Part shown: one piece after another, positions 33 to 1,551 of the stretch
Numbering within the stretch: the stretch's first letter is position 1
Layout of the letters: each line of letters begins with the position of its first letter
Assembly: GCF_003334335.1 (NCBI RefSeq)
Contig: NZ_QOWQ01000102.1
Origin: Escherichia coli
Lineage (GTDB): Bacteria; Pseudomonadota; Gammaproteobacteria; Enterobacterales; Enterobacteriaceae
Length of the DNA: 1,551 bases
Direction: 5' to 3' (one strand)
Program-made: the position numbers and the translations under genes
Notes under the pieces: model-generated
Seen by the model: the letters and a program-made list of their open reading frames with translations, nothing else
What the model was told of the DNA's origin: nothing
The model's database searches: none

Positions 33-218
33 CCATTTTTACTGTAAAACCGTGGCCAATATTACTTGACCACTACAGCATTACCGAAACGGCTTTCATC
101 GCTGCAAGGTTTTTCTTTGCCGGAATGTATCCGGTCAGCTTATACCCTGCTGATAACCTGCGCCCTTAAACATGCGGGCTGCAGCCTGTTGAGCCTGCCT
201 GAAATGAGCTAGGATTAG

Positions 219-446
219 GTGAAACACCTATCCATCTTGGTGTACTGTACATATGAAGCATGTGCCTTGATGCAGCTTGTAGCGATTTGTATGCAACCGA
301 TGACATTAATCCGTAAGACATGGGAAAAGATAGCAACTGAGATCCTAAGTTTGAATGTTATCACGCCTGCGTTTGAGAAACTTCGTTGGAAAAGTAACCT
401 CGGTAAACCCCCGTGCCCTGAGCTCATTCCGGAGATGCTGTCATAG
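219..446 (+). CDS. Hypothetical small protein (75 aa), unrecognised; possibly spurious
   Basis: ORF from the supplied track with a GTG start at 219 and TAG stop at 444-446. An AGGA motif sits at 211-214, 4 nt upstream of the GTG. No family recognised. It is fully overlapped by the antisense ORF 215-427. Confidence 0.15.
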
Positions 447-486
447 TGACCGTCTTGCTATTGGTGGGAATTGGAGACTGAATGTT

Positions 487-520
487 TTGACAAGACAGTC
501 CGGGAAATTCTGGGTGTAAT
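487..520 (+). promoter_or_regulatory. Candidate sigma70-like promoter upstream of the tRNA remnant (perfect -35 hexamer, poorly spaced -10)
   Basis: TTGACA at 487-492 is an exact -35 consensus. The nearest -10-like hexamer is TGTAAT at 515-520, giving a 22-nt spacer, which is longer than the usual 16-19 nt. A promoter-like motif only. Confidence 0.2.
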
Positions 521-549
521 CATATAAGACAGGTGATATTGCGTTCTCC

Positions 550-620
550 AACCCTTTAGCTCAGTGGTAAGAGGACTCATAATCGCTTGGTCGCTGGTTC
601 AAATCCAGTAAGGGCCACCA
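550..620 (+). pseudogene. Degenerate tRNA-Ile(CAU)-like remnant (tRNA-Ile2 / ileX-ileY family); not foldable into a full cloverleaf
   Basis: Seen in sequence: D-arm GCTC(559-562)/AGTGGTAA/GAG; anticodon loop CTCATAA (576-582, anticodon CAT); variable region TGGTC; T-arm GCTGG(593-597)/TTCAAAT/CCAGT(605-609); acceptor 3' strand AAGGGCC (610-616), discriminator A, encoded CCA (618-620). Defects: the acceptor 5' strand reads AACCCTT (550-556) where GGCCCTT is needed, and only GA lies between the D-stem and the anticodon loop, so the 3' anticodon-stem strand TCGCT (583-587) has no partner. From memory of the enterobacterial tRNA-Ile2 sequence this amounts to a deletion of about 5 nt plus a few substitutions. 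Confidence 0.6.
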
Positions 621-931
621 TCACACACTGCCACTGGCCCATTGCGCCATGCCCGGCGCATATCAGCCACAGAGCCTTTCGGGGATAATTTGCAGAGTGG
701 TCTGGCTGACTTTCTCTGTAGGCAGATCGTTCCCGCTTGATAGCTCATCCCCCAAAGAAACGTCACGATATTTGGTATTTTCAAAATTCAAAAAGAAAAC
801 CCGCAGAGTGGCAACAGAGATTAAAAAGTTTGAGAAACGCGATCTGGCACAGGCGGTGATTGGTGTTGGAGTGATGGTAGATTTTATCAGCCGGATAATG
901 TCGGTTCTGGCTGATAGCTGGGGTTGTTGGT

Positions 932-1126
932 GTGGTCTTCCTATTGATGAAAAAACAAGCAATTACTTGGCATATTATCTGTAACACTTTAAAACTGTTA
1001 AGAAGATCACAATTCATTATGTTTATTATTGTCTGGCCGGAGGGATATTTGTTAAAAAGTGCGCCGTGTGGTGAATCCCCCTGTGCGGTGGGGCGACTGG
1101 TGTACATAGCATTTATTATGTTATGA
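932..1126 (+). CDS. Hypothetical small protein (64 aa), unrecognised; likely spurious
   Basis: ORF from the supplied track with a GTG start at 932 and TGA stop at 1124-1126, about 90 nt upstream of the strong plus-strand terminator. It lies in an AT-rich tract and overlaps ORFs 649-984 (+) and 781-1107 (-). No convincing ribosome-binding site and no recognisable motif. Confidence 0.1.
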   Translation: MVFLLMKKQAITWHIICNTLKLLRRSQFIMFIIVWPEGYLLKSAPCGESPCAVGRLVYIAFIML

Positions 1127-1217
1127 GCGAAGCCTACGCGGGTTCAGTGACACCGACTGAATTCACCGGGAGGCACCCGGCACCATGCAACAGACGCAAG
1201 TTAGGCTAAGCCTTATA

Positions 1218-1246
1218 CCCCTGTAAGTTTTTTACAGGGGTTTTTT
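1218..1246 (+). terminator. Rho-independent terminator (perfect 9-bp stem, 5-nt loop, T6 tract)
   Basis: CCCCTGTAA (1218-1226) pairs perfectly with TTACAGGGG (1232-1240) around loop GTTTT, followed immediately by TTTTTT (1241-1246). Confidence 0.7.
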
Positions 1247-1254
1247 GTGCACAG

Positions 1255-1277
1255 AAAACCCCCAGCTAGGCTGGGGG
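1255..1277 (-). terminator. Candidate rho-independent terminator for minus-strand transcription (convergent with the 1218-1246 terminator)
   Basis: CCCCCAGC (1259-1266) pairs with GCTGGGGG (1270-1277) around a 3-nt loop. On the minus strand the hairpin is followed by TTTTCTGT (complement of 1251-1258). The U-tract is only 4 nt, so this is weaker than the plus-strand terminator. Confidence 0.4.
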
Positions 1278-1551
1278 TTCCGGAAAGCTTTCAGCTTTGA
1301 GCCAGTTATTAAAACTCTGAACCGGTTCCTGGCACGAATATCATTCCCGGCCTGCGCTTTGATTATCTCAGCGACTCCGGCGGGAACTTCAGCCGCAGTC
1401 TGAATCTTTCGCAGGAATTGGGCGATTATTTCAAAGTCAAAGCAGGGGTTGCCCGAACCTTTAAAGCCCCAAACTGTACTGACCCCAAAAAGTTGGACAG
1501 TTAAACACGAGGCATATAGGTCTGATTCCGATATTCAATTGGAGTCAGACC

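Follow-up and report, generated by a model that had tools for sequence, protein, structure and literature searches.

Just downstream of their Q antiterminator gene, lambdoid phages have tRNA genes that are thought to supplement rare codons (PMC3636060). Our comparison set comprised three prophages (L007, from O157:H7, L008 and L009) and phage Evi (L011), in which the late region reads Q antiterminator, DNA methylase (in some), tRNA-Ile, tRNA-Arg, tciA/TerB, tciB/DUF3927 and lysis genes; the gene names ileZ, argN, argO, tciA and tciB are taken from GenBank phage records. In all four, tciB is directly followed by STnc100, a prophage-encoded sRNA (bioRxiv 10.64898/2026.05.13.724894). On the chromosome of complete E. 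coli genomes, ileY adjoins ypjC and ygaQ, and ileX adjoins mug. The tRNA-Ile2 encoded by ileY and ileX has a CAU anticodon that is lysidine-modified. Genes for tRNA-Ile2 are also real targets of integration, as is seen in ET210, where a true integration at ileY has left a 47-nt 3' half, from the anticodon loop to CCA, beside a site-specific integrase (L005 8001-8047). An AlpA/inovirus-Gp2-type island adjoins this ileY site, and the native ypjC-ypjA-ssrA flank follows. An att scar has DNA of the element on one side and DNA of the target on the other, and normally holds the 3' part of the tRNA only.

We analysed a stretch of E. coli DNA of 1,551 nt (the window), in which a preliminary description had noted a decayed tRNA-Ile(CAU)-like copy at 550-620 and had read it as a possible integration-site scar. 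Comparison with the systems above suggests that this relic is very probably a dead ileZ (tRNA-Ile2, CAU) from the late region of a lambdoid/Stx-type phage, lying in prophage rubble. The features of the window are as follows, those within 550-620 being parts of the relic.

1-77, strand not assigned: end of an IS3-family (ISEc31-like) element (NCTC86 annotation; homology with L001 and L002 begins at 78)
171-467, plus strand: fragment of a P2-type replication endonuclease (gpA), amino acids 159-261, with in-frame stops (tblastn, E 1e-16)
468-527, plus strand: methylase tail, the last 20 codons and stop of a lambdoid-prophage DNA methyltransferase (tblastn, blastn, synteny in L008 and L009)
550-620, plus strand: putative pseudo-tRNA-Ile2 (anticodon CAT), a decayed copy of lambdoid-phage ileZ (Rfam, ARAGORN, alignments, fold)
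550-556: acceptor 5' strand, AACCCTT
557-558: U8/A9
559-573: D arm, with D stem at 559-562, D loop at 563-570 and D-stem 3' strand at 571-573 (last base gone)
574-575: anticodon-stem 5' strand, of which just two bases remain
576-582: anticodon loop, CTCATAA
583-587: anticodon-stem 3' strand
588-592: variable loop
593-609: T arm
610-616: acceptor 3' strand
617: discriminator A
618-620: CCA
552-633: block of tRNA-Ile, 3' spacer and start of the next tRNA (match in L007, E 1e-24)
626-642, plus strand: stub of the 5' end of a second phage tRNA (argN-type), about 16 nt (alignments to L007, L009 and L011)
643-774, plus strand: spacer homologous to the interval between the last phage tRNA and tciA (84% identity to L007 6294-6507, E 3e-63)
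775-861, plus strand: first 29 codons of tciA (TerB-family) (tblastn E 4e-13, block alignment)
862-915, plus strand: internal piece of tciB (DUF3927), fused to the tciA stub (tblastn E 2e-6; PGAP partial DUF3927 protein)
1036-1250, plus strand: STnc100 prophage sRNA gene, full length (Rfam 138.5 bits; terminator at 1217-1241)
1257-1316, plus strand: IS200 left end, the first 60 nt of the STnc490 model, truncated (Rfam STnc490, 62.4 bits)
1318-1478, plus strand: internal fragment of iroN (98% identity to annotated iroN genes)
1479-1551, strand not assigned: end of an IS150 (IS3-family) element inserted in iroN (annotation under the match; L001 features)

The coordinates first given for the tRNA-like copy proved exact. 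The Rfam tRNA model matches 550-617 with 30.7 bits (E 4.9e-4), barely above the gathering score of 29, whereas intact prophage ileZ copies reach 72.5 bits, and 552-620 shows 90.5% identity with chromosomal ileY (E 3e-16, searched against 28 Gb) and 87.8% with ileX. Judged from these comparisons, the relic is a genuine tRNA-derived sequence, far beyond a chance match. The alignments to ileX and ileY also bear out that it is not the normal gene, as it carries a 5-nt deletion. It had been proposed that the 5' strand of the anticodon stem and the first two acceptor pairs are lost, and both losses are evident in the Rfam alignment, where five positions are gapped at the 5' anticodon stem and acceptor positions 1:72 and 2:71, both A-C, are unpaired. 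Pairing is still possible at five of seven positions in the acceptor stem, three of four in the D stem, two of five in the anticodon stem and all five in the T stem, and the complete cloverleaf of a functional tRNA is thus not formed. ARAGORN called no tRNA in the window. The minimum free energy of the relic is -17.4 kcal/mol, at the level of shuffled sequences (z -0.48); intact ileZ and ileY have -33.5 and -34.1 kcal/mol, with z of about -4. The contrast drawn earlier between a nearly intact 3' half and a decayed 5' half stands in one respect, because a single 5-nt deletion and two 5'-terminal G>A changes all fall in the 5' half and account for it; it does not extend to the other substitutions relative to prophage ileZ, of which there are about three in each half. 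PGAP gives no annotation to the relic in the carrier records inspected.

The origin of the deletion is illuminated by a sister locus in AHB30 (L016 12126-12197), whose flanks are 94% identical to the window. At the junction of the D stem and anticodon stem, intact ileZ reads GAGCGAGCGACTCAT, containing a tandem GAGC-GAGC (GAGCGAGCGA), whereas AHB30 has GAACGACTCAT (a 4-nt loss) and the window GAGGACTCAT (a 5-nt loss). Because the sister has a 4-nt deletion at the same spot, the lesion is an old one and the sequence is drifting. Presumably, slippage removed one GAGC of the tandem in the common ancestor, after which the window and AHB30 lineages would have drifted by one base each, the window losing one more base. 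The AHB30 copy has 72 nt and scores 41 bits on Rfam; ARAGORN accepts it as a tRNA, and PGAP annotates it as tRNA-Ile, which is probably a false positive. Further along the AHB30 locus (L016 12608-14163), two STnc100 copies (12608-12824 and 13825-14035) are followed by a full STnc490/IS200, and a group II intron D1-D4 fragment (12948-13117) lies between the two copies.

These calls on the sister copy raise the question of whether the relic, in spite of its shortened anticodon arm, could still work as an unusual tRNA or yield a tRNA-like RNA that undergoes RNase P processing or has some other use. Such a reading would be in keeping with the Rfam score above the gathering threshold, with the intact T arm, five acceptor pairs, discriminator base and CCA, and with the intact-looking STnc100 gene in the neighborhood. 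We consider it very unlikely, however. Besides the broken anticodon, D and acceptor stems, the silence of ARAGORN and the fold at shuffle level, a promoter scan, which is weak evidence, found no sigma-70-like promoter on the plus strand upstream of the relic. Moreover, the AHB30 and window copies differ inside the lesion itself (4 versus 5 nt, G versus A) and diverge at about the rate of their flanks, as neutral drift would predict. Because the anticodon arm cannot form and no promoter-like site lies upstream, the relic would most likely be without function.

To which tRNA gene the relic traces back is best seen from the sequence around it. In a sensitive search with 78-1490, a second class of relatives with 69-87% identity was found, and these are lambdoid prophages in which the annotated order is DNA methyltransferase, tRNA-Ile, tRNA-Arg (one or two), TerB-family protein and DUF3927 protein. 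The window is collinear with L007 at 552-633, 643-861, 871-915, 1069-1096 and 1156-1190, the order being kept throughout, and L008, L009 and L011 are collinear with it in the same way. Upstream of the relic, the translation of 468-527, ELETECFDKTVREILGVII followed by a stop, aligns in tblastn with the C-terminus of the phage methylase, ELETGRFEQTVREVQDLIV and stop, and the DNA is 74% identical to the 3' end of the methylase gene in blastn. Weak matches of 60-80% to 468-527 occur in about 590 genomes, and every sampled one lies inside a methylase gene, which in intact prophages is directly upstream of ileZ. Downstream of the relic, the alignment of 574 to 635/642 runs into the next tRNA and then jumps in L007 from 6089/6162 to 6294. 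This corresponds to a deletion of about 205 nt that follows the stub, with one end inside the second tRNA and the other about 40 nt beyond the last tRNA, and with the loss of the tRNA-Arg gene(s). The tciA stub has no start codon and carries a 7-nt insertion, and the remaining approximately 390 nt of the gene are deleted. Methylase/Q, tciA, tciB and STnc100 are thus all represented in the expected order and on the same strand, STnc100 at full length and the others as fragments; tRNA-Arg is represented by the 16-nt stub only. STnc100 is the last recognizable lambdoid feature of the fragment.

STnc100 is also the sole element of the fragment that still looks intact, the surrounding protein genes all being broken, and it may still be expressed or be retained for some reason. 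In the O157:H7 prophage, the AgvB (anti-GcvB) sRNA lies directly after STnc100 (L007 7214-7275, minus strand), and the window has no counterpart of it.

It is also evident that the relic belongs to the tRNA-Ile2 lineage, with a CAT anticodon and 87-90% identity to ileZ, ileY and ileX. In the tRNA body it is closer to ileY than to the sampled prophage ileZ copies (about 87% identity), which counts against an origin from ileZ, and at positions 43/44 it has TT, the ileX/ileY type, where the sampled ileZ copies have CA. These two observations would suit the capture, together with host DNA, of an ileY-like tRNA-Ile2 locus from the chromosome of E. coli or of some other enterobacterium. Other observations do not. 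Across the 5,426 complete E. coli genomes, the likeness to the ileX/ileY loci ends at the tRNA termini (query positions 53-121 only), whereas the likeness to prophages continues beyond the tRNA on both flanks. The T-loop of the relic, TTCAAATCC, has the A of the ileZ type, where ileX and ileY carry G. The 3' flank, TCACACACTGCCAC, resembles that of prophage ileZ, TCACAAACCGCCAT, and the ileX/ileY flanks are unrelated. Finally, the signature of the relic lineage was sought among 100,044 species-representative genomes, and its sole match was a tRNA of Candidatus Gullanella, an unrelated endosymbiont. Capture of a chromosomal locus is therefore extremely improbable, and descent from a phage ileZ remains the preferred reading. 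Because the relic has TT at 43/44 and the sampled ileZ copies have CA, its parent would have been an ileZ variant unlike the sampled ones, with TT at these positions, whose intact form was not found in our searches. Besides this TT, an intact parent would be expected to carry the D-loop GGTAAGAG and to be flanked by TCACACACTGCC. In IMG/VR, the exact 35-nt pattern of the 3' half occurs at three loci, all unrelated, and the gapped lineage signature has zero matches.

The fragment is located in an E. coli pathogenicity island, which is a mosaic. A stretch of 181 nt around the relic (500-680) is present in 321 of the 5,426 complete E. coli genomes, with 95-100% identity. The island contains malX, an enterotoxin gene, rbsK-fucP, iro genes and afa-type fimbrial genes, and it begins beside clpA with a tyrosine recombinase gene. 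From this gene down to the relic, the distance is 29 kb in WP2-W18-ESBL-10 and 12 kb in AHB30. At the clpA end of the island (L019 32441-34517 and L017 5924-8006), ARAGORN found no tRNA, and a serW 3' end used as query had no match. Two annotations of "RtT sRNA" lie between clpA and the integrase.

Within the window, the mosaic junctions are at 467/468 and about 1256/1257, both away from the tRNA. At the first, the gpA fragment, whose DNA (171-467) is 77-79% identical in blastn to annotated "replication endonuclease" genes, meets the methylase tail, and pieces from two unrelated phage types, P2-type gpA and lambdoid methylase, are thereby joined. At the second, lambdoid sequence gives way to the STnc490 match. 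This match corresponds to the left end and 5' UTR of IS200, which in the window is cut at about 60 nt and fused to the iroN fragment; in L016 and L002, STnc490 is complete (124 nt) and IS200 tnpA comes next. In L001, iroN picks up again after the IS with its C-terminal part.

The position of these junctions bears on whether the relic marks a past integration into tRNA-Ile2, either as what is left of attL/attR or as a target tRNA that was displaced; an integration-site scar or island-boundary marker had been the first suggestion. The ET210 case shows that such integrations occur, the best-preserved part of the relic is the very segment repeated there, and the surrounding island is rich in mobile-element debris. 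Nevertheless, both flanks of the relic are phage-internal and collinear with the neighborhood of ileZ, and the relic is of full length including the D arm, not a 3' half. We searched for repeats of at least 15 nt of the tRNA 3' half (574-625) in four genomes (L001, L002, L006 and L010) and found none within 20 kb on either side. According to the annotation, L001, L002 and L006 have no integrase gene in the 20 kb to each side, nor has L010 in the 8 kb inspected to each side; the island's own integrase is 29 kb off, adjoining clpA, and neither mosaic junction falls at the tRNA. The left flank of the relic is, like the 181-nt stretch, found in 321 genomes, and judged by these equal totals no interrupted copy is evident. 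Thus none of the hallmarks of an att scar was found, whether a direct repeat, a nearby integrase with host flank, or occupied and empty states of the site. As the preliminary description stated, the window itself contains neither convincing genes around the relic nor an integrase, and the 3' end of the tRNA does not occur in it a second time; of the checks that it proposed, the search beyond the window turned up no integrase or repeat within the spans given above, and the comparison of genomes no interrupted copy. Because the relic is full length and has phage-internal sequence on both sides, we rejected the att-scar reading, given also the missing repeat and nearby integrase, and regard it as highly improbable.

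Descent from a phage ileZ can be pictured as follows. The source gene would have belonged to a late-region cluster that comes after the Q antiterminator gene, and in many phages after a DNA methylase gene as well, and that consists of ileZ, one or two tRNA-Arg (argN/argO), tciA, tciB and STnc100. In the phage, the ancestral ileZ would have provided a tRNA, presumably lysidine-modified, for reading the rare codon AUA in late genes. A prophage piece of about 0.8 kb (468 to about 1256) would then have persisted inside the mosaic island, in which ileZ lost 4-5 nt at the junction of the D stem and anticodon stem as well as the first two acceptor pairs. Deletions took away the neighboring tRNA-Arg genes and most of tciA, and the upstream Q/pR' region gave way to the P2-type gpA fragment.

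A decayed phage-borne tRNA gene is a known kind of object, and it is the ordinary explanation here. There is a very slim chance of something less ordinary, namely that the relic, or above all its 72-nt sister, is transcribed and put to use as a tRNA-like RNA of a non-canonical kind, for example a decoy or a signal for processing, or that the 47-nt 3' half, with 45 of 47 positions identical to ileY, is a secondary attachment site for ileY-targeting integrases. Two implications follow from the ordinary explanation, and they have little weight outside annotation. First, because phage-borne tRNA genes decay in place together with their prophage, a tRNA-like relic in an island need not mark an integration site. 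Second, such sequences can mislead automatic tRNA counting, and likewise software that relies on tRNA fragments to call island boundaries, because the relic just passes the Rfam cutoff and RefSeq lists its sister as tRNA-Ile.

Among the known systems, the ileZ-argN-argO cluster of lambdoid/Stx-converting phages (e.g., Lahn2, Nil3 and O157:H7 prophages) is the one that the locus resembles in position and orientation, the relic lying between the DNA-methylase/Q region and tciA-tciB-STnc100, and also in the 3' flank, the T-loop variant and an identity of about 87% in the tRNA. Unlike ileZ, the relic lacks 5 nt at the 5' anticodon-stem strand and has two broken acceptor pairs and TT for CA at 43/44, and, unlike the cluster, it has had its tRNA-Arg partners deleted and resides in a fragment of about 0.8 kb in an island rather than in a prophage. 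Chromosomal ileY and ileX, the tRNA-Ile2 genes of E. coli, share with the relic 88-90.5% identity in the tRNA body and the anticodon loop CTCATAA, but their flanks are unrelated to those of the relic, which has A for G in the T-loop and a broken cloverleaf. The 47-nt ileY repeat of ET210 covers the same segment, from the anticodon loop to CCA, as the well-preserved part of the relic (45/47 identity), whereas the relic is of full length and stands without an adjacent integrase, a partner repeat or a native target flank.
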